From: a virus
Reading direction: 5' to 3' (one strand)
Length of the DNA: 40,619 nucleotides
IMG/VR virus record: IMGVR_UViG_3300045988_070645
Location: 1 to 40,619 of that record
The notes below the pieces were generated by a model. It saw only the letters and a list, made by a program, of their open reading frames with translations, made no database searches and was not told where the DNA came from. Position numbers and translations under genes: made by a program. This document shows, one piece after another, positions 418 to 40,619 of the stretch (positions within the stretch are counted from its first letter, which is position 1; each line of letters opens with the position of its first letter).

Positions 418-714
418 TCACAATGCCGGGTATGCGCTCCGGTCGAGTTCCGTCACATCCACGAACGTATTCGGCTGCGGGCCGCATTCGGCGAAGTCGC
501 CGATACCGGCCACCATGTCGTTCGCCTGTTCGATGCAGTAATCGACGTCATCCACGATGTAGGCGGGCTCCATGCTGTCGTCGGCGAAGCAGGTCTCCAG
601 GTTTCCGACCTCGAAGAAGTCGGCCGACCAGTCGGGGCCGTAACCCGGATTCTCCTCGTCCCACTCGCGGATGCTGATTTCCACTGCCTTGTTGTTGTCG
701 ATGAGCGTGACCAT
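418..714 (-). CDS. Small, highly acidic 98-aa protein (acidic protein 1)
   Basis: ATG at 714 is preceded by AAGGAC within the 77-bp repeat. The protein is rich in D/E (WDEENPGYGPDWSADFFEV). Confidence 0.6.
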   Translation of the reverse strand: MVTLIDNNKAVEISIREWDEENPGYGPDWSADFFEVGNLETCFADDSMEPAYIVDDVDYCIEQANDMVAGIGDFAECGPQPNTFVDVTELDRSAYPAL

Positions 715-788
715 TTGGTTTGTCCTTTCTTTTGCTGACATGATTAATATTACTACTACAGTGGTAATAATCAAGTTGGGCGTGTCGC
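712..788 (-). repeat. 77-bp direct repeat, copy 1, carrying a promoter/5'UTR/ATG
   Basis: Identical base for base to 2952..3028. On the minus strand it reads TTGATT..TAGTAATATT..AAGGAC..ATG. Confidence 0.95.
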
Positions 789-789
789 A

Positions 790-1017
790 TCACTCACTCA
801 ATCCGGCCCAGAAATCATCCAACGTCACACCCAATTCGTCCGCCAGCACCTTGGCCGTGGCAAACCCCATCAAATGCGGGTCACGCGCCGACTTCGGACG
901 TGGACTGTCGGACCACGCCTCCCACGCCCACACGCGCCCCACGGTGCTGCTCCCAATCGCCCGGCACAGATCCTGCTGCGACAATCCGGCACGCTCGCGC
1001 ATCGACCTCAAACCCAT
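790..1017 (-). CDS. XRE-family helix-turn-helix protein (75 aa)
   Basis: GLSQQDLCRAIGSSTVGRVWAWE helix-turn-helix. The ATG at 1017 lies 1 nt after the recombinase stop. Confidence 0.6.
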   Translation of the reverse strand: MGLRSMRERAGLSQQDLCRAIGSSTVGRVWAWEAWSDSPRPKSARDPHLMGFATAKVLADELGVTLDDFWAGLSE

Positions 1018-1018
1018 A

Positions 1019-1882
1019 TCAATCCTCCTTGCCCAGGTAATCCTGCAATCCGTCGCCAGCCTTGCCATTCAGCCCGCGACGGGACATGTCGTAATAGTCG
1101 AGCATCTGCGGACTGTTCCACCCGCCTGCGGCCATGATGTCCCTGTCCGGCACTCCCGCGTCGCGGGAGAGTGTGCAGAAGGTGCGCCGCAATGAGTGCG
1201 GAGATATACTTGGCACGCCGATCCGCAGGGCCACCGACGAGACGATGCCGACAGCCCGCTGATGCCGTAGCCGCACGCCGGAAGAATCACGGAACACCGG
1301 CCCATGCTTGCGGCGTCCGAGATGCCGGGCAAGCGCTTTGGCCGCATCGGACGGGACTGCCACGCGCTGAGACCAGTCGCCCTTGCGGTCGAACCGCACC
1401 CACGGGCGCCCGTCATCCAGGTGGCAGTCCTCGACGTCCAATCCGAGCACCTCGCCTATCCTCGCTCCGGTCAGCAGCAGCAGACTGCACAAGGCGTCCG
1501 TCTGCGCGTCCATGTGGCGCGCCTCGGCCAGGAAGGCCACGGCTTGGTCGCGTGTGAGGTATGTTCCGTCGGAATGGCCGTAGAGCCTCGGTCTGCGCAC
1601 GTGCTCGCCGGGGTCGGAGTCGATGTACCCCTCCTCGCAGAGGTAGCGGTAGAGGCAGCACACGACGCTCAGATTCTTGCACACCGTGTTTTTCGCTGCT
1701 GGCCGCATGCCGCCGTCATAGGCGGCGAACACCTCGATATGGGTGCGCTTCGCCCGCAGCATATCGATGCCATTATCCGCACACCAGCGGAGCCATCGCG
1801 ATACGACGCTCCGATACACGGCCCTCGTACCCGGCGACAACCCGGCGAGAAAACCGGCGATCATGTCGGTCAACGTCTCCAT
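1019..1882 (-). CDS. Second tyrosine recombinase (XerC/D-like)
   Basis: ARIGEVLGL (R), HSLRRTFCT (HxxR) and GGWNSPQMLDYYD (catalytic Y). The ATG at 1882 follows AAGGAGA and overlaps the upstream gene by 13 nt. Confidence 0.8.
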   Translation of the reverse strand: METLTDMIAGFLAGLSPGTRAVYRSVVSRWLRWCADNGIDMLRAKRTHIEVFAAYDGGMRPAAKNTVCKNLSVVCCLYRYLCEEGYIDSDPGEHVRRPRLYGHSDGTYLTRDQAVAFLAEARHMDAQTDALCSLLLLTGARIGEVLGLDVEDCHLDDGRPWVRFDRKGDWSQRVAVPSDAAKALARHLGRRKHGPVFRDSSGVRLRHQRAVGIVSSVALRIGVPSISPHSLRRTFCTLSRDAGVPDRDIMAAGGWNSPQMLDYYDMSRRGLNGKAGDGLQDYLGKED

Positions 1883-2739
1883 ATGCGCACCGTCTCCTTG
1901 CAGACAAGCGGCTTGTCGGCCGGACCCTTGACAAACGGTGGTATCCACTGGCGTCGGCGGAGCGAATGATTCGGCCCATACGCCTGATCGCGCCAGAAAC
2001 CACGCACGATGAAACGATGCGAATACTCACGCCGCACCCGCTCGTCATCATCGGCGCTTCCACCCGGACGATGCAGATTCTCACGCAACACCAGCATCTT
2101 GACCTTGCGGATCTCCGGCTCGAAGCGCGACGGCAACGGGTATCTCATGCTGGGTTCGGCGGGCTTGGTGTCGCAGATCCGCGGCTCGCCGCTCAACGCC
2201 CAGACGGCTTGCAGATAGTCAATCCATGCTTTTTGAAACACGGCATCCGCATCGTGGATGGATTTTGCCCTAGCTGCCGTCAAGTCAAGCCAATCGATAG
2301 GCAGACCGATGGAGTCCGCACCACTCTTCCGCAGCGATTCAGGATCATCGGTAAATGCCATGACGGAGGTCTCGCCATCGCCAATCCGATCCCAGAAGAA
2401 CCCCGCGACATTGCTGGTGATGCCAATCGACGACGTGTCTACCGGAACCCCACCCTCAATGAACATCACTCCGCTTGCGGCCGGGGCCTGCATCCGCGGG
2501 AAGTCGCCCTGCGCGGCGGTGTCGGCGGCAAGCTTGGCCATGTCGCGGCTGACCCACCACAATTGCGCGACGGACATCTGATCGATTTCGCTCCACATTC
2601 CATCCAAGATGCGCCGGTATTGCGGCTTGGCTTCGTACTGCCTCATCGCCCGTTCCCGCCAGACGGTGACGAATTTGTCTCGGATGAGCGGCAGGTGCGA
2701 TGGGGTTAGGCGGAGGCGCTTGTTTTTTCTGCGCGTCAT
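1870..2739 (-). CDS. Hypothetical 289-aa protein with no motif I recognise
   Basis: ATG at 2739 lies inside ORF 1870..3129. The gene is translationally coupled to the recombinase and has coding-like composition. Confidence 0.6.
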   Translation of the reverse strand: MTRRKNKRLRLTPSHLPLIRDKFVTVWRERAMRQYEAKPQYRRILDGMWSEIDQMSVAQLWWVSRDMAKLAADTAAQGDFPRMQAPAASGVMFIEGGVPVDTSSIGITSNVAGFFWDRIGDGETSVMAFTDDPESLRKSGADSIGLPIDWLDLTAARAKSIHDADAVFQKAWIDYLQAVWALSGEPRICDTKPAEPSMRYPLPSRFEPEIRKVKMLVLRENLHRPGGSADDDERVRREYSHRFIVRGFWRDQAYGPNHSLRRRQWIPPFVKGPADKPLVCKETVRIWRR

Positions 2740-2750
2740 GTCAGCCTCGG

Positions 2751-2954
2751 TCAGTTCGCGTTGTTTTCGAGGATTTCGGTGAACGTGTCGGCCGGCACGT
2801 CGTCGTAATCTTCGATGTTGTTGGCGGTCATGAAGTCGATCATGTCGGATGCCGCCCAATAGACGTCCCAATCGGACGGGTTCATGGAGGAGTTGGTGAG
2901 ATAGTCGTTGATGTAGTCTTGGGCGGTGGCCATGTTGATTTCCATGATGTTCAT
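2751..2954 (-). CDS. Small, highly acidic 67-aa protein (acidic protein 2)
   Basis: The ATG at 2954 sits at the same position within the 77-bp repeat as that of acidic protein 1. Sequence: MNIMEINMATAQDYINDY..DYDDVPADTFTEILENNAN. Confidence 0.6.
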   Translation of the reverse strand: MNIMEINMATAQDYINDYLTNSSMNPSDWDVYWAASDMIDFMTANNIEDYDDVPADTFTEILENNAN

Positions 2955-3028
2955 TTGGTTTGTCCTTTCTTTTGCTGACATGATTAATATTACTACTACA
3001 GTGGTAATAATCAAGTTGGGCGTGTCGC
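2952..3028 (-). repeat. 77-bp direct repeat, copy 2
   Basis: Identical to 712..788. The flanking sequence is unrelated. Confidence 0.95.
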
Positions 3029-3051
3029 GTATTAGACTGTGAAACGTCCTT

Positions 3052-3130
3052 TTTGCTGACACAAACGGACAAGAGGCGGAGCCGGGCAATGTAAAGCTCC
3101 GCCTCTCTTATAATTGGCCATGTCAGCAAA
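3052..3130. promoter_or_regulatory. Divergent control region: inverted TGTCAGCAAA motifs flank an 11-bp-stem hairpin and a TATAAT box.
   Basis: TTTGCTGACA at 3052-3061 and TGTCAGCAAA at 3121-3130. AGAGGCGGAGC(3072-3082) pairs with GCTCCGCCTCT(3096-3106). TATAAT at 3108-3113. Confidence 0.5.
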
Positions 3131-3140
3131 GGAGACCATC

Positions 3141-4310
3141 ATGGCCTACACGATCCGCCAATACGCGACGAAATCCGGCAAACGCTACGAAGTCAGATAC
3201 CGCAAGCCGGACGGCACGACCACAGGCAAAAGAGGCTTCCGGCGCAAGATGGACGCCGACGCATGGGGTGCGGCCAACGTGACCACCGCGAAAAGCGTCG
3301 GAGCATACATCGACCCGCAAGCCGGAAGACGCTTGGTCGAGGATTTTTGGGAGCCGTGGATAGCGGCCAAAAAGACCAAAGCCAAGCCAAGCTACGTCAA
3401 GTCGCTGGAAGACGCTTGGCGCGTGCATGTGGAGCCGCAGTGGGGCATGAGGGAAGTGCAGTCGATCGCGCGAGGCGAGGTGCAGGGGTGGGTCACCGAT
3501 CTGGCCGGACGGCGCAGTGCGTCCGTGACGATTCGCGCCGAGAATCTGCTTCGCAGTCTCATGGAGAGGGCGAAGGCCGATCGGTGCATCCATGACAATC
3601 CATGCGACGGCATCGAGCTGCCGCGCAAGCAGGTGCGGAAGCACGTCTATCTCTCGGCTGACGAATTGTCTCGTGTGGCGATGCAGTGCGGGTGGCGTGA
3701 GCCGATCGTGCTGACCTTGGGCCTGTGCGGCATGAGGTGGGGTGAGCTTGTGGCGCTCCGTGTCGAGGATGTCGATCTGCAACGCTGTCGGCTGCATATA
3801 TATAGGAGCATCACGCGTCTTTCCAGCAGGATGGTGGAGACCGACCCGAAAACCCATGATGGACGTTCGGTGATGTTTCCCCTGGTGTTGCGTCCACTGC
3901 TCGCCAGGCAATGCGAGGGGCGCAGGCCGTCCGATTTTCTTTTCACCGCTCCCGGCGAGCCTTTGGACGAGCCGATGGGGAATGGCTGGAATCCGACGCG
4001 AAGCGATGGGTGGTTCGCGGTGGCTCTTCGTCGCGCGGGCGTGGATCGTGGCCACATGACGATTCACGATCTGCGCCATACGGCCGCTTCGCTCATGGTG
4101 CAGTCAGGCGCGAACGTCAAGACCGTGCAAAGGCAGCTGGGGCACAAGTCGGCCGCCATGACATTGGATGTTTACGCCGATCTCTTCGATGATGATCTGG
4201 ACGAGTTGTCGGAGAGGATGGGTGGTTTGCTTTTTTCGCGGAATGTGGGCAAAATGTGGGCAAACGTGACGCAAGGTGTCGATGGAACCGTTGAAACGGT
4301 TGGTGTCTGA
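3141..4310 (+). CDS. int: Phage integrase (tyrosine recombinase)
   Basis: AAGGAGA RBS before the ATG at 3141. N-terminal arm-binding-like MAYTIRQYATKSGKRYEVRYRKPDG, plus MRWGEL (R), HDLRHTAAS (HxxR) and LDVYADL (Y). It lies next to the attP-like site. Confidence 0.9.
   Translation: MAYTIRQYATKSGKRYEVRYRKPDGTTTGKRGFRRKMDADAWGAANVTTAKSVGAYIDPQAGRRLVEDFWEPWIAAKKTKAKPSYVKSLEDAWRVHVEPQWGMREVQSIARGEVQGWVTDLAGRRSASVTIRAENLLRSLMERAKADRCIHDNPCDGIELPRKQVRKHVYLSADELSRVAMQCGWREPIVLTLGLCGMRWGELVALRVEDVDLQRCRLHIYRSITRLSSRMVETDPKTHDGRSVMFPLVLRPLLARQCEGRRPSDFLFTAPGEPLDEPMGNGWNPTRSDGWFAVALRRAGVDRGHMTIHDLRHTAASLMVQSGANVKTVQRQLGHKSAAMTLDVYADLFDDDLDELSERMGGLLFSRNVGKMWANVTQGVDGTVETVGV
4245..4262 (+). repeat. Putative arm-type site (GTGGGCAAAATGTGGGCA), copy 1, inside the int 3' end
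   Basis: 18-bp exact direct repeat of 4455..4472. Confidence 0.6.
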
Positions 4311-4347: not shown

Positions 4348-4354
4348 CTTTTGG

Positions 4355-4385
4355 AAACCGCCAGAGATGGCGGTTTTCCTTTATT
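4355..4385 (+). terminator. Terminator following the tRNA 3' fragment
   Basis: AAACCGCCA-GAGA-TGGCGGTTT, followed by a T-rich run. Confidence 0.65.
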
Positions 4386-4416
4386 CTCCAACGGTTTTCA
4401 AGCTTTCCTATTTCAC

Positions 4417-4477: not shown

Positions 4478-4984
4478 TCACCAGATCATCGGCAGTCCGA
4501 GGCATTGGCGCGCCCACTGTTCCACGGCACGATTCTCCTCATCGTCACCGAGCATGAGGAGATAACCGGCGTTCTTTCCGAGGGTGGCGGGCTGTAGACA
4601 TTTGATGAGTCCTTGGTCGCGGAGGAATTTCCATGCTTGGACGATTCGGACCTTGGCGGTGCCCTCACGTGCTTTCATCGCGGCCTCCACCTCCTCTTCC
4701 GACTTGCCGATGACTTGCTCGGGGGAGAGCGCCATCATTCCGTGGTCTTCGGCAAGCGTCTTCCAGCCCTTCGTGTAGTAGCGGCATGGATAGCCCTTGG
4801 ATTTAGCGTCACGGCTCGGCTCCTTGTGCTCGCTGTCCCAGTCGTAGCTTGAGAGCGCCATATCGAGGAGCACAAGCTCCGCCATCGTGTTCACCGTGAT
4901 CTTGCTGCCTCGCGGCTTGAGCAGTTTTCCTGCGCGGCTGAGCTCGTAGACTGCTCCAGCGTTGCGGTATCCCATCTTTTCCAT
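4478..4984 (-). CDS. Hypothetical 168-aa protein with a possible winged-helix C-terminus
   Basis: GGAGAGG RBS before the ATG at 4984. The longer 5062 start would run through a 12-bp perfect inverted repeat. Confidence 0.5.
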   Translation of the reverse strand: MEKMGYRNAGAVYELSRAGKLLKPRGSKITVNTMAELVLLDMALSSYDWDSEHKEPSRDAKSKGYPCRYYTKGWKTLAEDHGMMALSPEQVIGKSEEEVEAAMKAREGTAKVRIVQAWKFLRDQGLIKCLQPATLGKNAGYLLMLGDDEENRAVEQWARQCLGLPMIW

Positions 4985-5042
4985 CGCTTTCCTCTCCACG
5001 CCTAGAGGTAAAATCTTGCGTGGAGACGCTAGTCCGTTTCCT

Positions 5043-5082
5043 GCCCTTGGCGTGCTCTTCAAACCTCACGCCAAGGGCTTTT
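5043..5082 (+). promoter_or_regulatory. Perfect 12-bp inverted repeat followed by TTTT. It could be a plus-strand terminator or a 5'UTR hairpin of the minus-strand gene.
   Basis: GCCCTTGGCGTG(5043-5054) pairs with CACGCCAAGGGC(5067-5078). Confidence 0.55.
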
Positions 5083-5298
5083 CCTTATGTGGAATACTAT
5101 ACCACATGAGGTGTATTAAACACATCCACAGAGATATATTCTTTTAAAACTCATAGGGGTATTTAAATATACTATATACATGTAATACATGTGTTTATAT
5201 ATTTTTTTACAAGAGCGCCAATGCGCTGAAAAACGAAGAATCGGCACGTCCAATCCCCATCTGCGGTAGCTTGAAGCGGAGAGAAGGAAGGGGAAGCA
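5083..5298. promoter_or_regulatory. Markedly AT-rich divergent intergenic islet
   Basis: Runs such as TATTTAAATATACTATATACATGTAATACATGTGTTTATATATTTTTTT. Inverted repeat ATGTGG-N9-CCACAT at 5087-5107. Confidence 0.5.
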
Positions 5299-6084
5299 AT
5301 GAAGAAACTGATTTACCTCGTGCTATCCGTGCTGTGCGCAATCTCCGGCATCTACGGCATCTACGACACCATCACCACACCGCAGGATGATCTGGCCACA
5401 AGCATCATAACGATTCTGCTCCTCGCCTTCCTTGCATGGCTTTTCATGCATCTCTTCCTCAATCCGGAGCCGCGCCATAAGCATCAAGCGACGAATACGC
5501 CTGAATCGTCGCCGGAAGCACCCTCAGACGCTCCAACAGCGGAAACGGCACCAATCACCCACAGCAACGCGAATAGTGGCGTGGAGGACGATTACGTGGC
5601 TGTGGATATTGAGACCACCGGCCTAGGTCGTGACGCTCGAATCATCGAGCTGGGAGCCGTGAGAATCAGGCACGGACGCAAAGTCGCGTCATACAGCCAG
5701 CTCGTCAACCCCCAGATCCCAATACCAGCCAAGGTCACGCAGATCACCGGCATCGCCGACCGGGACGTCAAAGGCAAACCCACCATCGACAAAGCGCTAC
5801 CCAAATTCTACGCTTTCTGCGGGCGTGATACGTGGATAGGACACAATATTCGCCGCTTCGACATTCCGGTGATTGCCAGGGAAGCGCAGAGGGTCGGTGC
5901 CGGGATGCCGGACGTGAGCTTCTATGACACTTTGGAAGTCTCTCAGACGCTCTTGCCGCAGCTTGACCGCCATAGACTGCTCGACCTCATCCGCTATTTC
6001 GGCATCGCCAAGACCGAGCGTCATAGGGCCGCCGACGATGCTGCACAGACAGCGCAAATCTTCGAGCATTTGAAGCAGATATAA
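5299..6084 (+). CDS. Membrane-anchored DnaQ-like DEDDh 3'-5' exonuclease
   Basis: Two N-terminal hydrophobic helices (LIYLVLSVLCAISGIYGIY and IITILLLAFLAWLFMHLFL). Exo I is VAVDIETTG, Exo II is GHNIRRFDIPVI, Exo III is HRAADDAAQTAQIF. Confidence 0.75.
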   Translation: MKKLIYLVLSVLCAISGIYGIYDTITTPQDDLATSIITILLLAFLAWLFMHLFLNPEPRHKHQATNTPESSPEAPSDAPTAETAPITHSNANSGVEDDYVAVDIETTGLGRDARIIELGAVRIRHGRKVASYSQLVNPQIPIPAKVTQITGIADRDVKGKPTIDKALPKFYAFCGRDTWIGHNIRRFDIPVIAREAQRVGAGMPDVSFYDTLEVSQTLLPQLDRHRLLDLIRYFGIAKTERHRAADDAAQTAQIFEHLKQI

Positions 6085-6123
6085 GCTTTATAAAGACTTA
6101 TAAAGGCTTATAAGGCAATATAA

Positions 6124-6145
6124 AAGCCCCACGATTGTGGGGCTT
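6124..6145. terminator. Bidirectional terminator hairpin
   Basis: AAGCCCCAC-GATT-GTGGGGCTT, with A/T runs on both sides. Confidence 0.65.
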
Positions 6146-6152
6146 CATGCTA

Positions 6153-6443
6153 TCAGAGGCTGTTCACGGCATTGTAGAATTCCTGCGCGTCCTCGGCCTT
6201 CTTGAATTTCAGGGGCAAGGAGCGCAGCGCGCTGTACCTCCATGTGACGGTGCGCTTCTTGATCGTCACCCCTTGCAGATCGGTCACCTTGTAGGCTTCG
6301 GTCTTCTTATACCGGTGCAGATACGTGGTGCCCCTGTCCAATTCCAGCCGGTTCGCATACAGACGAATCGCCAGAAACATCGGGTCGTCAAGCCTATCGC
6401 ACTCGTAAACCGCTCCTGGTGCGGGCTGTGGTCGCTTTGCCAT
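6153..6443 (-). CDS. Hypothetical 96-aa protein, the last gene of the repressor operon
   Basis: ORF track. Same strand as ImmA and directly downstream of it. Confidence 0.5.
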   Translation of the reverse strand: MAKRPQPAPGAVYECDRLDDPMFLAIRLYANRLELDRGTTYLHRYKKTEAYKVTDLQGVTIKKRTVTWRYSALRSLPLKFKKAEDAQEFYNAVNSL

Positions 6444-6482: not shown

Positions 6483-6935
6483 TCAGACGATGCAGACATG
6501 CTCGGCCATGATTTGCCGGAAGTCACCCAGCACCTGCTGGGTAACCTCCAATTCCTGGGCGATATTCCACGAATTGCCGTCGTACATCTGTTCGAGCAGT
6601 CCGTAATGGAGCGGGTCTATCAGCGTGAGTGCCGTCTCGCGTCTGGCCCGATGTTCCTCGCGACTGCGTGCCACGTGCTCGCATGACGCATCACCGTGCC
6701 GCCAGTGAGTCAATTCATGCACCAGAGTGCATCGCTTGGCCGCATACGTGAGCCGACGATCGATGAGGATGACATGATTCTCGTCGTCGTAGCAGCCCCA
6801 TAGTCCGTCCGGCAGGATGGCGCTGGACACGGTAACGGGCAGGCCGACAATGGCGCGGCGCATGGCACCGTAGGTCATGCGCCGGTCGATCGGCAGGTCA
6901 GGCAGGCTCGTCGTAATCCGGCCCAGCCTCTCCAT
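6483..6935 (-). CDS. ImmA/IrrE-family zinc metallopeptidase
   Basis: HELTHWRHGD (HExxH). AGGAGG lies 7 nt before the ATG at 6935. The gene overlaps the repressor 3' end. Confidence 0.75.
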   Translation of the reverse strand: MERLGRITTSLPDLPIDRRMTYGAMRRAIVGLPVTVSSAILPDGLWGCYDDENHVILIDRRLTYAAKRCTLVHELTHWRHGDASCEHVARSREEHRARRETALTLIDPLHYGLLEQMYDGNSWNIAQELEVTQQVLGDFRQIMAEHVCIV

Positions 6936-7269
6936 TGATGGCCTCCTGCTTGCCCTGGGCGTCATAGGCGGCAAGACCGTAGCCGCCTGCCTGCGCCTTC
7001 CTCTCGGCGTCTTCGATCGCATGACGCTGCGAATCCATCACGATGTCGCCGACCGATACGCCGGTCACCTCGCTGATGCGTTCCAGGTCGCTCAGGTTGA
7101 GAGGTCTTGTGAAGTTCTGGCGCTTGTACCAGTAATCCTCGCCGAAGCCGCAGGCCTTGGCGAATTCCTTGATGGTCATGCCGCTGTTCTTCTGGAGTCT
7201 GACGCATTCGCGCATGACCTGCTTGGCGAACTGCGTGACTTCGTTTGCTTTCATTCCCATGGCTCTCAT
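6898..7269 (-). CDS. cI-like XRE-family repressor
   Basis: HTH GMTIKEFAKACGFGEDYWYKRQN. It pairs with ImmA and faces the cro-like gene. Start is ATG 7269 or TTG 7278, with no RBS, so the transcript may be leaderless. Confidence 0.7.
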   Translation of the reverse strand: MRAMGMKANEVTQFAKQVMRECVRLQKNSGMTIKEFAKACGFGEDYWYKRQNFTRPLNLSDLERISEVTGVSVGDIVMDSQRHAIEDAERKAQAGGYGLAAYDAQGKQEAINGEAGPDYDEPA

Positions 7270-7278
7270 TATAGCCAA

Positions 7279-7377
7279 TTACGTAGCCAATGTGTGCAAA
7301 TTGTGAAGAACTATGAAAATACATAGATGTGGACTACGAAATTGCGTAGATTAAGAACTGTCGAAAGGAAAACAGAG
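7279..7377. promoter_or_regulatory. Lysis-lysogeny switch region with operator-like palindromes
   Basis: CTACGAAATTGCGTAG at 7334-7349 (7 of 8 pairs) and TACGTA at 7280-7285. Confidence 0.5.
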
Positions 7378-7506
7378 ATGAAGACCACAGCCAAGACCAA
7401 GACCCCCGACCACTACCCGTGCGGCCACATGCGCGGCCCCGGCTGGCACGACTGGCGCGCCTGCCTCACCAAGCAGGGAATCGAGGAGGATGAATGGCCG
7501 GTCTGA
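7378..7506 (+). CDS. 42-aa Cys/His-containing micro-protein, first gene of the early operon
   Basis: GAAAGGAAAACAGAG RBS region. MKTTAKTKTPDHYPCGHMRGPGWHDWRACL... The gene overlaps the next ATG. Confidence 0.4.
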   Translation: MKTTAKTKTPDHYPCGHMRGPGWHDWRACLTKQGIEEDEWPV

Positions 7507-7742
7507 CCGAAACCGCCAGCTGCAACCTCGCGGGCGAACTGGCCCGCCATCGCAAAACACGCGAAGACCTCGCCAAAGCGTGGGGATGCGCGCCGAAAAC
7601 AGTGGACACGCGACTCCGCGGCCAAACACCACTCACGACCGACGAAATCGAAAAAGCCGCCCACCTACTCGGCCTCGAAGCCTCCACCCTCACCATGGTC
7701 CTCATCCAACCAATCGACGCCGCGAGCCAATTCAAAGCCTGA
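7494..7742 (+). CDS. Cro-like/XRE helix-turn-helix protein
   Basis: GAGGAGGA RBS. HTH REDLAKAWGCAPKTVDTRLRGQ. Confidence 0.6.
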   Translation: MAGLTETASCNLAGELARHRKTREDLAKAWGCAPKTVDTRLRGQTPLTTDEIEKAAHLLGLEASTLTMVLIQPIDAASQFKA

Positions 7743-9436: not shown

Positions 9437-9742
9437 ATGAACGAAAACAAACCACAGGCGGCAACATGGGTGCTCTGCGTCGACATCGACCCCGACAACC
9501 CGAAATCCGACCCAATACTCATCGCCACACTTGACATGCCGCTGGACGGCGGCCTGATCAGCGTCACCCTGCCCGGCAACAGACTCGGCGAGGGCACCGC
9601 GCTTGCCGCCCGAACCGCATGCCAGGCCATCGACAAGGCGCTCAAAAGGCACATCGAACGCGGCGGCGACAGCGACACCCCGGAAATGCTCACCGGCCTC
9701 CACATCAACCCGATGAGCGACATTCGGGATGGCAGGCCATGA
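9437..9742 (+). CDS. Hypothetical protein (101 aa)
   Basis: Internal ATG of ORF 9308..9742, preceded by AAAGGAAA. Confidence 0.5.
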   Translation: MNENKPQAATWVLCVDIDPDNPKSDPILIATLDMPLDGGLISVTLPGNRLGEGTALAARTACQAIDKALKRHIERGGDSDTPEMLTGLHINPMSDIRDGRP

Positions 9743-9957
9743 CTGACCTGCTTCGGCCGGAGGAGTTCGCGGCGATGATCGGCATGAGTCCCCGCACTCT
9801 CGCCAATTGGCGGAGCAATGGCAAAGGGCCGAAATATTTGAAGATTGGCGACGAGCCGCCGGAAGGCAAGCAGGACAGGCGTGAAGTGCGTTATCCGCGT
9901 GACGTGGCCGAAAGGTGGGCCTTGGCTCACGAATTCACGAGGACGGTAGCGAGATGA
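9739..9957 (+). CDS. Excisionase-family/MerR-like HTH DNA-binding protein
   Basis: LLRPEEFAAMIGMSPRTLANWRSNGKGPKYLKIG...RYPRDVAERW pattern. ATGA overlap with the upstream gene. Confidence 0.55.
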   Translation: MTDLLRPEEFAAMIGMSPRTLANWRSNGKGPKYLKIGDEPPEGKQDRREVRYPRDVAERWALAHEFTRTVAR

Positions 9958-39859: not shown

Positions 39860-40619
39860 ATGGGCATTAGACAGCAGACGATTGACGATTACGGTGCGTT
39901 CGTGGAGAAATTCAAGCCGAAGAAGACCACGGACGACTGCTATACCCCCCCCGCGGTATATGAGGCGATAAAGGATTGGGCATGCCGTGAGTATGGCATC
40001 GACCACAGCAAGGTGGTGCGTCCCTTCTATCCGGGCGGCGACTACGAGAGTTTCGACTATTCGGACGGCAAGGTGGTGGTGGATAATCCGCCGTTCTCGA
40101 TTCTGTCGAAGATATGCGCGTTCTACCGCGACCGTGATATTCCTTTCTTCTTGTTCGCTCCGAACCTCACGATTTTCAGCAGCACGTCGCGCAACGGCGC
40201 GCATATGCTGGTCACTGATTGCGCGATCGAATACGCCAACGGCGCTATCGTCAACACCAGCTTCGTGACGAGTTTCGGCGATGACCTGATTCGCACCGCA
40301 CCGGATCTGACGAAGCTGATTAACGATGCGGTGAAACGAGTCAGGCGCGAAAGCAAGAAACATCTGCCGAAGTATGCGTATCCGCCGGAATTGTTGACCG
40401 TCACACGACTGAATAAGGTCGGCAATGCTGGCGTGGATTTCCGCGTCAAGGCTTCGGATGTGGCGTTCACGCGGGCACTCGATTCGCAGAAGGCGGTAAG
40501 GAAGGCCATCTTCGGCGGCGGCTATCTGATGAGCGAGAACAAGGCCGCGGAACTGAAGGCCGCGGAACTGAAGGCCGCGGAACTGAAGGCCGCGGAACTG
40601 AAGGCCGCGGAACTGAAGG
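39860..40619 (+). CDS. N6-adenine DNA methyltransferase-like protein, first 253 codons. The ORF has no stop before the window end and continues at 1..131.
   Basis: DDCYTPP near the N-terminus and VVVDNPPFS (motif IV-like). A C8 run lies at 39945-52. The ORF ends in KAAEL repeats. Confidence 0.6.
   Translation, partial: MGIRQQTIDDYGAFVEKFKPKKTTDDCYTPPAVYEAIKDWACREYGIDHSKVVRPFYPGGDYESFDYSDGKVVVDNPPFSILSKICAFYRDRDIPFFLFAPNLTIFSSTSRNGAHMLVTDCAIEYANGAIVNTSFVTSFGDDLIRTAPDLTKLINDAVKRVRRESKKHLPKYAYPPELLTVTRLNKVGNAGVDFRVKASDVAFTRALDSQKAVRKAIFGGGYLMSENKAAELKAAELKAAELKAAELKAAELK
40541..40619 (+). repeat. 15-bp perfect tandem array (5.3 units), the same array as 1..70
   Basis: Read directly. The last 63 nt equal the first 63 nt of the window. 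Confidence 0.95.

Follow-up and report, generated by a model that had tools for sequence, protein, structure and literature searches.

The stretch analysed here, IMG/VR virus record IMGVR_UViG_3300045988_070645 over its full length of 40,619 nucleotides (the window), is a circularly assembled genome of a Bifidobacterium temperate phage. The gene under study is an open reading frame (ORF) at 5299..6084 on the plus strand, which begins with ATG, encodes 261 amino acids and has a Shine-Dalgarno-like run, GGAAGGGGAAG, 5 nt upstream of its start. From the N-terminus onward, the product consists of a two-helix membrane hairpin, a linker and a DEDDh exonuclease domain. A preliminary description, made from the letters of the window, had read the protein as two transmembrane (TM) helices and a Pro/Ser/Thr/Ala-rich linker joined to a complete DEDDh domain, and this architecture was confirmed by hydropathy, AlphaFold2 (AF2) modelling, the Pfam profile PF00929 and the positions of the catalytic motifs.

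The exonuclease domain and its membrane anchor

The DEDDh (DnaQ/PolC-like) 3'-5' exonuclease domain occupies residues 97-261, which together with the stop codon correspond to 5587..6084 on the plus strand. The Pfam RNase_T profile (PF00929) matched residues 100-255 over its entire length (1-164/164) with 115.2 bits against a cutoff of 24 (E=5.6e-33), and the protein also matched the PADLOC DEDDh model (2e-36) and phrog_192. The motifs DIETTG, HNIRRFD and HRAADD lie at residues 103, 182 and 242, respectively. Their catalytic residues, namely D103 and E105 (ExoI, D-x-E), D188 (ExoII, D) and H242 and D247 (ExoIII, H-x4-D), were invariant in relatives down to 28% overall identity. On sequence grounds, the protein is a member of the DEDDh superfamily. 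An AF2 model built from a 26-sequence alignment gave a confident DEDDh fold for residues 98-260, with a predicted local distance difference test score (pLDDT) above 93. In this model the protein terminates with the ExoIII helix and has no polymerase-binding C-terminus.

The best matches by sequence and fold were the Cas2-DnaQ domain, the PolC exonuclease, the N-terminal exonuclease of DinG and the epsilon subunit of DNA polymerase III (Pol III), and matches to ExoX and TREX1/2 were found as well. The Cas2-fused DnaQ domain trims the 3' overhangs of prespacers. A search of genome contigs with the family profile showed PolC to be the nearest cellular relative. These matches bear on the substrate of the enzyme. 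It could be imagined that the protein acts not on DNA but on RNA or short oligonucleotides (nanoRNAs, pGpG-type) at the membrane, tuning host signalling or countering a nucleotide-based defence, because PF00929 also includes RNase T, oligoribonuclease and ERI, and a weak match to an Rv2179c-like exoribonuclease was recorded (E=2.5e-6, 27.7 bits against a cutoff of 27). However, by sequence and by fold alike, the best matches are DNA exonucleases without exception, cyclic nucleotides offer no free 3' end, and the neighbourhood of the gene gives no hint of nucleotide signalling. We therefore regard a non-DNA substrate as very improbable.

The N-terminal membrane hairpin spans residues 1-54 (5299..5460, plus strand). 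Kyte-Doolittle hydropathy places TM1 at approximately residues 4-22 and TM2 at approximately residues 35-54, and AF2 predicted helices at residues 2-26 and 32-54. The hairpin is followed by a disordered Pro/Ser/Thr/Ala-rich linker of 42 amino acids (residues 55-96; 5461..5586, plus strand), in which these four residues make up 55% of the sequence. The pLDDT falls below 50 at residues 58-93, and the length of the linker differs among relatives.

The preliminary description had also predicted that the nuclease faces the cytoplasm, and the distribution of charges agrees with that prediction. In all 153 of the 153 relatives with two hydrophobic segments, the charge pattern follows the positive-inside rule: on average, 2.5 Lys/Arg residues are present in the 5-residue N-terminal tail, 0.46 in the loop of about 12 residues (which carries 2.2 Asp/Glu) and 3.2 in the 15 residues past TM2. 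Because the charges follow this rule, the hairpin is predicted to adopt an N-in/C-in arrangement and the nuclease should be cytoplasmic. This topology is derived from the hydropathy, the bias in charges and the helices of the AF2 model. Cleavage of TM1 would leave the C-terminus cytoplasmic, since a second TM segment follows the first. The possibility of a lipoprotein, or of a signal peptide that exports the domain, was considered and rejected: the protein has no lipobox, TM2 follows TM1, and the hydrophobic segments are unlike an exporting signal peptide.

The selective regime of each part was assessed by the ratio of nonsynonymous to synonymous substitutions (dN/dS), calculated pairwise by the Nei-Gojobori method over 26 distinct 261-codon alleles. 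The ratio was 0.12 in the exonuclease domain, 0.31-0.35 in the membrane module and approximately 0.7 in the linker. The exonuclease domain is under strong purifying selection, and the three regimes describe an enzyme kept by selection, an anchor under constraint and a tether almost free to vary. Positive selection acting on the membrane module was considered but is unsupported by its gross ratio. Where exonuclease domains are 88-93% identical, residues 1-58 of the same proteins can be 88%, 60-65% or as little as 22-25% identical; the membrane module is either swapped among alleles or diverging far faster than the enzyme. A juxtamembrane motif, (T/A)DPEARF, lies past TM2 and is common to distant members; the anchor is therefore more than a generic greasy helix.

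Place of the gene in the prophage and among its relatives

The window has the content of a complete temperate siphophage, with integrase, immunity, early, structural and lysis genes. The structural and lysis set comprises small terminase, portal, S78 protease, HK97-type capsid, tape measure, endolysin and holin, and the early region is of the RecT/SSB type. Pfam searches of the terminase region were uninformative as to the type of genome ends. At the window ends (1-75 / 40542-40619), the first 63 nt are identical to the last 63 nt, and the window is therefore a circular assembly. The break point is within a tandem repeat of 15 nt (AGGCCGCGGAACTGA), present in at least 5 copies, that codes for a KAAEL pentapeptide repeat, and the ORF containing it spans the window ends.

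A tyrosine integrase gene (int; 3114..4310, plus strand; Pfam Phage_integrase E=6e-20) lies upstream of the exonuclease gene and is followed by a terminator-like hairpin at 4353-4378, just before the prophage boundary. Downstream, an ImmA-like protease, a helix-turn-helix (HTH) repressor and a cro-like gene span 6483-7742. The metalloprotease (6483-7022; Peptidase_M78 E=1e-5) and the repressor (6898-7278; HTH_26 E=8e-5) are both encoded on the minus strand, and phrog_87 and repressor PHROGs were matched in this pair. At their longest, the ORFs of these two genes share 125 nt; the protease as called in relatives has 131 aa, so that the true ImmA start is probably internal.

The left prophage boundary was located by comparison with related contigs, which are cited by L numbers. 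Similarity to the window begins at 4387 for the integrated prophages L001 and L003 and at 4410 for L002, with host genes leftward of these points. The approximate attP (4387..4410) therefore lies between int and orf194, a gene divergent from the exonuclease gene. Two different integration sites were recognised, one 3' of a DUF3052 gene and the other 3' of a major facilitator superfamily (MFS) transporter gene. It follows from this boundary that, in the integrated form, the exonuclease gene lies approximately 1 kb from attL and int lies at the far end. The order in the prophage is attL, orf194(-), exonuclease(+), [orf96(-)], ImmA(-), repressor(-), cro(+) and so on to the lysis genes, int and attR. 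About 44 IMG/VR proviruses confirm this order, and in most of them the exonuclease gene lies 0.8-1.3 kb from the provirus end. The earlier placement of the gene between int and the repressor thus holds for the circular form, whereas in the integrated prophage the gene is near attL and int is at the other end. In both forms the gene is outside the lytic gene strings. It occupies a variable accessory slot in the lysogeny module or at the prophage end, which is the usual location of prophage genes for superinfection exclusion and defence.

The closest relatives of the gene come from Bifidobacterium adolescentis and allied gut bifidobacteria. We examined eight close contexts, and the gene lay in a prophage lysogeny module in each of them (8/8). 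A search with the profile A1 was swamped by close relatives, and distant relatives were sought with a profile of distant members only. Seven distant Bifidobacterium-type look-ups (36-58% identity; B. animalis and others) again placed the gene in the lysogeny region of a prophage (7/7), between int and the immunity switch where the contig extends far enough, and the surrounding genes differed every time. All membrane-bearing relatives examined (36-93% identity) were in prophage lysogeny modules. This agrees with the location first suggested for the gene and shows that homologues are not restricted to replication modules. In a search of 1.84 billion cluster representatives, the 150 best clusters included approximately 25-30 in which the DEDDh domain is preceded by a linker and, at the N-terminus, one or two hydrophobic helices, and some of these TM-DEDDh clusters have additional C-terminal domains.

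The neighbourhood was also expected to be of the defence type, and PADLOC and Pfam searches of the slot identified Rosmer RmrT/RmrA, AbiD accompanied by a small DEDDh protein that is soluble, a Fic gene paired with SocA(Panacea), a nuclease of the HSDR_N type and DEDDh proteins 515-520 aa long. In the Bifidobacterium-type prophage of L096 (1357-3119), int and the TM-DEDDh gene have a full Rosmer pair (RmrA 2.9e-77, RmrT 5e-12) between them. A single lysogeny region contained as many as three different DEDDh genes (L098 1690-3383 and 5514-7061; L093 8759-10321). They are of three kinds: a 178-aa gene after an AbiD-like gene, the TM-DEDDh gene, and a 515-520-aa gene that matches PDC-S48 in its N-terminal third only.

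Beyond Bifidobacterium, single-TM DEDDh proteins of 413-462 aa, some with BRCT, were found on Firmicutes-like viral contigs of 37-44% GC (L152 5251-8533, L154, L156 and L176 4750-10703). Their genes are co-oriented with the adjoining HTH gene and int. The order, with X for the TM-DEDDh gene, is HTH-orf70-X-int in L152 and HTH-ImmA-X...int in L176, and in L146 HTH and ImmA are on the opposite strand. The Firmicutes-like proteins are probably part of phrog_192, which is annotated as 'DNA polymerase exonuclease subunit'. Soluble DEDDh homologues also occur at prophage ends, for example phiCT9441A gp78 beside attR; those in large lytic phages are ordinary replication genes. When genome contigs were searched with the family profile, nearly all matches were PolC genes or short soluble DEDDh proteins, and no context for the TM fusion emerged. 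Megablast of the region against sequenced phages found no match, and tblastn gave domain-level matches only, with no record spanning at least 80% of the protein.

One relative retains the gene in a defective element. In the integrated copy L003, everything from ImmA to portal is deleted: at 9565-9850 of that contig, the position corresponding to 6869 of the window is joined to that corresponding to 19703, the ImmA gene is fused to the portal gene, and the whole early region is gone together with the terminase. The exonuclease gene remains intact, as do orf96 and orf165. This retention is a possible sign of domestication.

L003 also bears on the question of whether the protein serves the life cycle of its own phage, in processing the phage's own 3' ends, in repair or proofreading at a membrane site, or in integration and excision. 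Names in the records point in this direction. Public records call the protein 'PolC-type DNA polymerase III', '3'-5' exonuclease' or 'DNA polymerase III epsilon subunit', and PHROG and NCBI naming places it with 'DNA polymerase exonuclease subunit' and PolC-type proteins. Moreover, DEDDh genes adjoin int in many unrelated temperate phages. Nevertheless, the gene is not part of the replication module, and the immunity genes, which run in the opposite orientation, stand between it and the early lytic genes. It has a promoter region and a terminator to itself (both predicted) and encodes a protein without the polymerase-binding C-terminus. It is intact in L003, a remnant unable to replicate or package, and a protein made after entry cannot act on the phage's own incoming genome. 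On balance, we consider a role in the phage's own life cycle unlikely.

Flanking signals and adjoining genes

The region in front of the gene had been described as an AT-rich islet of approximately 215 bp that carries it. The stretch 5083-5298 is indeed the lowest in GC of the window (38% versus 58%, z=-4.4), and equally low GC was found only in 216-bp windows that overlap it. However, only 5083..5211 is truly AT-rich, with 26% GC. The islet precedes the gene rather than carrying it, because the leader has 55% GC and the gene 56% GC. A recent foreign origin of the gene was likewise rejected, since its GC content and its GC at third codon positions (GC3, 69%) are near those of other phage genes.

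The AT-rich core (5083..5211) is a putative divergent promoter/operator region and contains two near-perfect palindromes, at 5083-5111 (14-nt arms) and 5173-5197. It is followed by the conserved leader of the exonuclease gene (5212..5298, plus strand), 87 nt long, which includes the ribosome-binding site. The leader is approximately 77-92% identical among the close relatives aligned, regardless of the upstream allele, and approximately 90-145 bp next to the start codon are common to these relatives. When the leader (5205-5310) was examined as a possible RNA element, no Rfam match was found in the window and its folding was no better than that of shuffled sequences (z=0.35).

The divergent gene orf194 (4478..5062, minus strand) probably starts at ATG 4984, which gives a product of approximately 168 aa, and it had no match in Pfam, PHROG, PADLOC or NCBIfam. 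An orf194 homologue was present upstream in nearly every close relative whose contig extends far enough. At least three allele classes of orf194 were distinguished (approximately 34%, 50-54% and 93-95% identity), with the exonuclease gene staying 78-93% identical. Each class is paired with its own palindrome-bearing AT-rich intergenic sequence; the AT-rich core aligns only in relatives with the 93-95% allele, and the leader is not replaced along with the allele. From this pairing in the alignments, we take orf194 and the AT-rich tract to form one exchangeable unit, which may be a regulator with its operators.

A terminator-like element of presumed function lies on the plus strand at 5043..5078, where a perfect 12-bp hairpin with a 12-nt loop (inverted repeat I1, 100% complementary) is followed by TTTTCC. 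This hairpin falls within the 5' end of orf194, which is on the minus strand, or immediately upstream of it, and could halt host-gene read-through at attL ahead of the exonuclease promoter.

Directly 3' of the stop codon of the exonuclease gene, Tandem Repeats Finder (TRF) detected 2.6 copies of a 10-bp tandem repeat (TTATAAAGAC; CTTATAAAGA) at 6088..6113. Three copies are present in L102 (approximately 1731-1760) and six in L100 (approximately 6745-6810). Gene content diverges right past the repeat, in variants with and without orf96, and the repeat may be a recombination junction. A GC-rich hairpin at 6124..6145, with a T-run on the minus strand, lies between the convergent genes and is a probable bidirectional terminator; it is kept in L001 and L139 with compensatory loop changes.

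The small protein encoded by orf96 (6153..6443, minus strand) is a facultative neighbour with homologues near other TM-DEDDh genes. Homologues of 30-36% identity lie upstream and co-oriented in L097 (1574-1843) and L098 (4059-4328) and downstream in L096 (4490-4762). In the two distant prophages in which a homologue is upstream, it is 3-14 bp away from the TM-DEDDh gene. Proteins of this type, 89-96 aa in length, thus recur beside TM-DEDDh genes in differing orientations. Only the homologue in L098 matched bPH_3, a bacterial PH domain, and did so weakly (E=0.045). As orf96 is missing from approximately half of the close relatives, it was rejected as an obligate partner and is an optional one at most.

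Elsewhere in the window, two perfect 77-nt direct repeats (712-788 and 2952-3028) were found 2240 bp apart in the region 418-3129. They flank a XerC/D-like tyrosine recombinase gene (1019-1948, minus strand) and a 419-aa ORF, and two small, very acidic ORFs (418-774 and 2751-3089) each take an identical 5' end from one of the repeats. The arrangement may be cassette-switching or shufflon-like. It resembles the Rin shufflon known from bifidoprophages, except that the present repeats are in direct orientation.

A proposed action at DNA entry and its counterparts

We propose that the gene encodes a prophage-borne, membrane-tethered DEDDh 3'-5' exonuclease that attacks the ends of incoming DNA, mainly that of superinfecting phages, and we give this proposal about an even chance of being right. 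The analysis shows the domain architecture with its intact active site, the purifying selection, the predicted topology and the setting in a variable slot rich in defence genes; expression in the lysogen, a DNA substrate, action on entering DNA and protection are what we infer. The retention of the gene in L003 and the precedents of SNIPE and Mpr, two tested systems discussed below, also speak for the proposal. The protein would be a Mg-dependent 3'-5' DNA exonuclease that the hairpin and a flexible tether of approximately 40 residues keep on the cytoplasmic side of the membrane. Expressed in the lysogen from its own AT-rich promoter, it would meet the free 3' end of linear DNA entering through the membrane, above all that of superinfecting siphophage genomes. 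It would then trim the leading 3' end, erasing the cohesive end, preventing circularisation and leaving a blunt end for host helicase-nucleases. The tether would keep the enzyme off the 3' ends at the host's own replication forks. Entry is proposed as the site of action because a DEDDh enzyme needs a free 3' end and such ends occur near the membrane when a phage genome enters. In cos-type actinobacteriophages the 3' ends extend as single strands of 8-13 nt (PMC7302621, PMC5513430), and a 3'-5' exonuclease is therefore the activity that would erase them.

Several points weigh against this proposal. The documented 3' cohesive ends are those of cos actinophages; a study of Bifidobacterium prophages (PMC6109161) makes no mention of the exonuclease gene or of overhang type, and another report (PMC4569894) gives no information on the ends of phiSASD1. 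The literature search found no experimental report on the protein or on any relative. The sigma-70-like matches in the AT-rich core (5144-5173 and 5175-5203) are no more frequent than in shuffled sequence. Because many soluble DEDDh homologues hold similar prophage positions, anchoring is not essential for the wider family, and an arms race in the membrane module is not demonstrated, since its dN/dS is below 1. The protein has no module for binding DNA or tail proteins of the kind that SNIPE has in DUF4041 and Mpr in DUF4352. Proofreading-type DEDDh domains are usually distributive, so that destroying a 40-kb genome requires the cohesive-end argument or a partner enzyme. The case for defence so far rests on guilt by association.

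The DNA excluded might also be of another kind, namely transforming single-stranded DNA or conjugative DNA, with the effect of limiting gene flow that might displace the prophage. Transforming DNA enters Gram-positive bacteria 3' end first, and a 3'-5' exonuclease at the inner membrane face would be placed to meet that leading end. Mobile elements of Vibrio and Campylobacter carry nucleases that block transformation. On the other hand, natural competence is not established in Bifidobacterium, conjugative DNA arrives 5' end first and capped by relaxase, the neighbours of the gene are anti-phage systems, and SNIPE does not block plasmid transformation (PMC13190303). We accordingly assign little likelihood to the exclusion of DNA other than that of phages.

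A wider form of our proposal, which we put forward tentatively and think more likely wrong than right, is that TM-DEDDh proteins are an unrecognised, widespread family of single-gene superinfection-exclusion nucleases of Gram-positive gut prophages, with a two-TM form in Bifidobacterium and a single-TM-DEDDh-BRCT form in Firmicutes. Such proteins would erase 3' cohesive ends at entry, and the exchangeable hairpin, perhaps with the PH-like orf96, would set which entry apparatus is recognised.

Bifidobacterial phage biology is poorly known, and the gene is a directly testable defence candidate whose proposed mechanism, the removal of 3' cohesive ends, can be checked biochemically. If the proposal of an anchored exonuclease acting on incoming DNA is true, this would be the first such nuclease on prophages of a dominant human-gut genus. 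It would help to explain competition among prophages of the Bifidobacterium adolescentis group, and hundreds of entries named 'DNA polymerase III epsilon' or 'PolC-type' would need re-annotation. The slot of the gene, with Rosmer, AbiD, Fic and other DEDDh genes, is a place to seek more bifidobacterial defence genes.

Among known systems, the location recalls that of the superinfection-exclusion genes of Gram-positive temperate siphophages, Sie2009 (Tuc2009), Ltp (TP-J34) and orf203 (Sfi21), which we take to occupy the same slot, between int and the repressor/metalloprotease. These proteins are membrane-associated, expressed from the prophage and block DNA entry; they have no enzymatic domain, and Ltp is a lipoprotein. 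The present protein has no sequence relationship to them, lacks a lipobox and has an enzymatic domain.

The enzymatic domain itself is shared with several cellular proteins. PolC, Pol III epsilon, Cas2-DEDDh and DinG have only the DEDDh domain of approximately 165 aa in common with the present protein, which lacks the polymerase, Cas2 and helicase parts and has no clamp- or alpha-binding tail. NCBIfam scores were below the cutoffs for PolC (133 versus 873 bits), for epsilon (54-94 versus 186-373) and for TIGR00573 (66.3 versus 71.5). The protein was rejected as a replicative proofreading subunit (epsilon/PolC) on the basis of these scores, its end at the ExoIII helix and its location in the lysogeny module. 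It was rejected as Cas2-DEDDh because only the DEDDh model was matched and no cas genes were found among the neighbours. The PADLOC candidate PDC-S48 has an N-terminal DEDDh domain in common with the protein (E=1.3e-28). Membership was rejected, as only 4-166/411 and 16-179/512 of the profiles were matched; in place of the C-terminal two thirds of PDC-S48, the present protein has a membrane anchor. In two prophages, the TM-DEDDh gene adjoins a gene for a PDC-S48-like protein of 515-520 aa. In mammals, TREX1 is a DEDDh 3'-5' DNA exonuclease anchored to the endoplasmic reticulum by a C-terminal tail, which faces the cytosol and clears stray and viral DNA. It is a distant fold relative only (E of approximately 1e-7, approximately 20% identity) and eukaryotic, and the likeness is one of analogy.

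Two bacterial systems come closer in their mode of action. SNIPE (PD-lambda-1) of E. coli is a constitutively membrane-bound, cytoplasm-facing GIY-YIG nuclease that cuts the DNA of the siphophage lambda during injection; conservation of its N-terminal membrane region is poor, and some homologues have two TM segments (PMC13190303). SNIPE combines GIY-YIG/T5orf172 with DUF4041, which binds DNA and the tape-measure protein, and neither was found in the present protein by Pfam or PADLOC. Moreover, SNIPE has one TM segment, is N-out and comes from a Gram-negative host, whereas the present protein has two TM segments. Mpr of Mycobacterium smegmatis, named for multicopy phage resistance, is a membrane-anchored, metal-dependent 3'-5' exonuclease (PMC12596739). 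Its defence against D29 and L5 is non-abortive and requires both membrane localisation and nuclease activity, and escape mutations map to a minor tail protein (PMC12596739). The nuclease region of Mpr has no similarity to known nucleases and hence is not DEDDh, in contrast to the present protein. Mpr also requires a C-terminal DUF4352, for which the present protein had no Pfam match, and is encoded by a chromosomal host gene rather than in a prophage lysogeny module.

A further alternative is an abortive-infection effector, held inactive at the membrane until membrane damage or cleavage of the linker, for example by an ImmA-type protease, frees the exonuclease to degrade phage and host DNA. 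SNIPE without its TM segment is toxic (PMC13190303); in the present protein the linker is long, disordered and near-neutral in evolution, which would make it an accessible tether, and Abi-type neighbours (AbiD, Fic) share the slot. Yet neither a sensor nor a protease site was identified, circular host DNA offers an exonuclease few targets, soluble homologues are found in prophages without evident antitoxins, and SNIPE and Mpr both act directly rather than abortively. An abortive effector is, in our view, improbable.

Returning to direct action on incoming DNA ends, we consider by analogy that the present protein probably works like SNIPE and Mpr, yet belongs to neither family. The preliminary description had known of no established family with this fusion. 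In the full-text literature searched, no account of a DEDDh exonuclease anchored to the membrane in prophages was found, and nothing on PDC-S48 either. The exact fusion thus appears undescribed, but the concept has precedents in SNIPE and Mpr: the fusion and its prophage setting are new, whereas the principle of a membrane-anchored nuclease acting against DNA entry is already established. If the proposed action is true, the DEDDh protein would be a third independent solution, beside the GIY-YIG nuclease of SNIPE and the orphan nuclease of Mpr, and in all three self and non-self would be told apart by place rather than by sequence.

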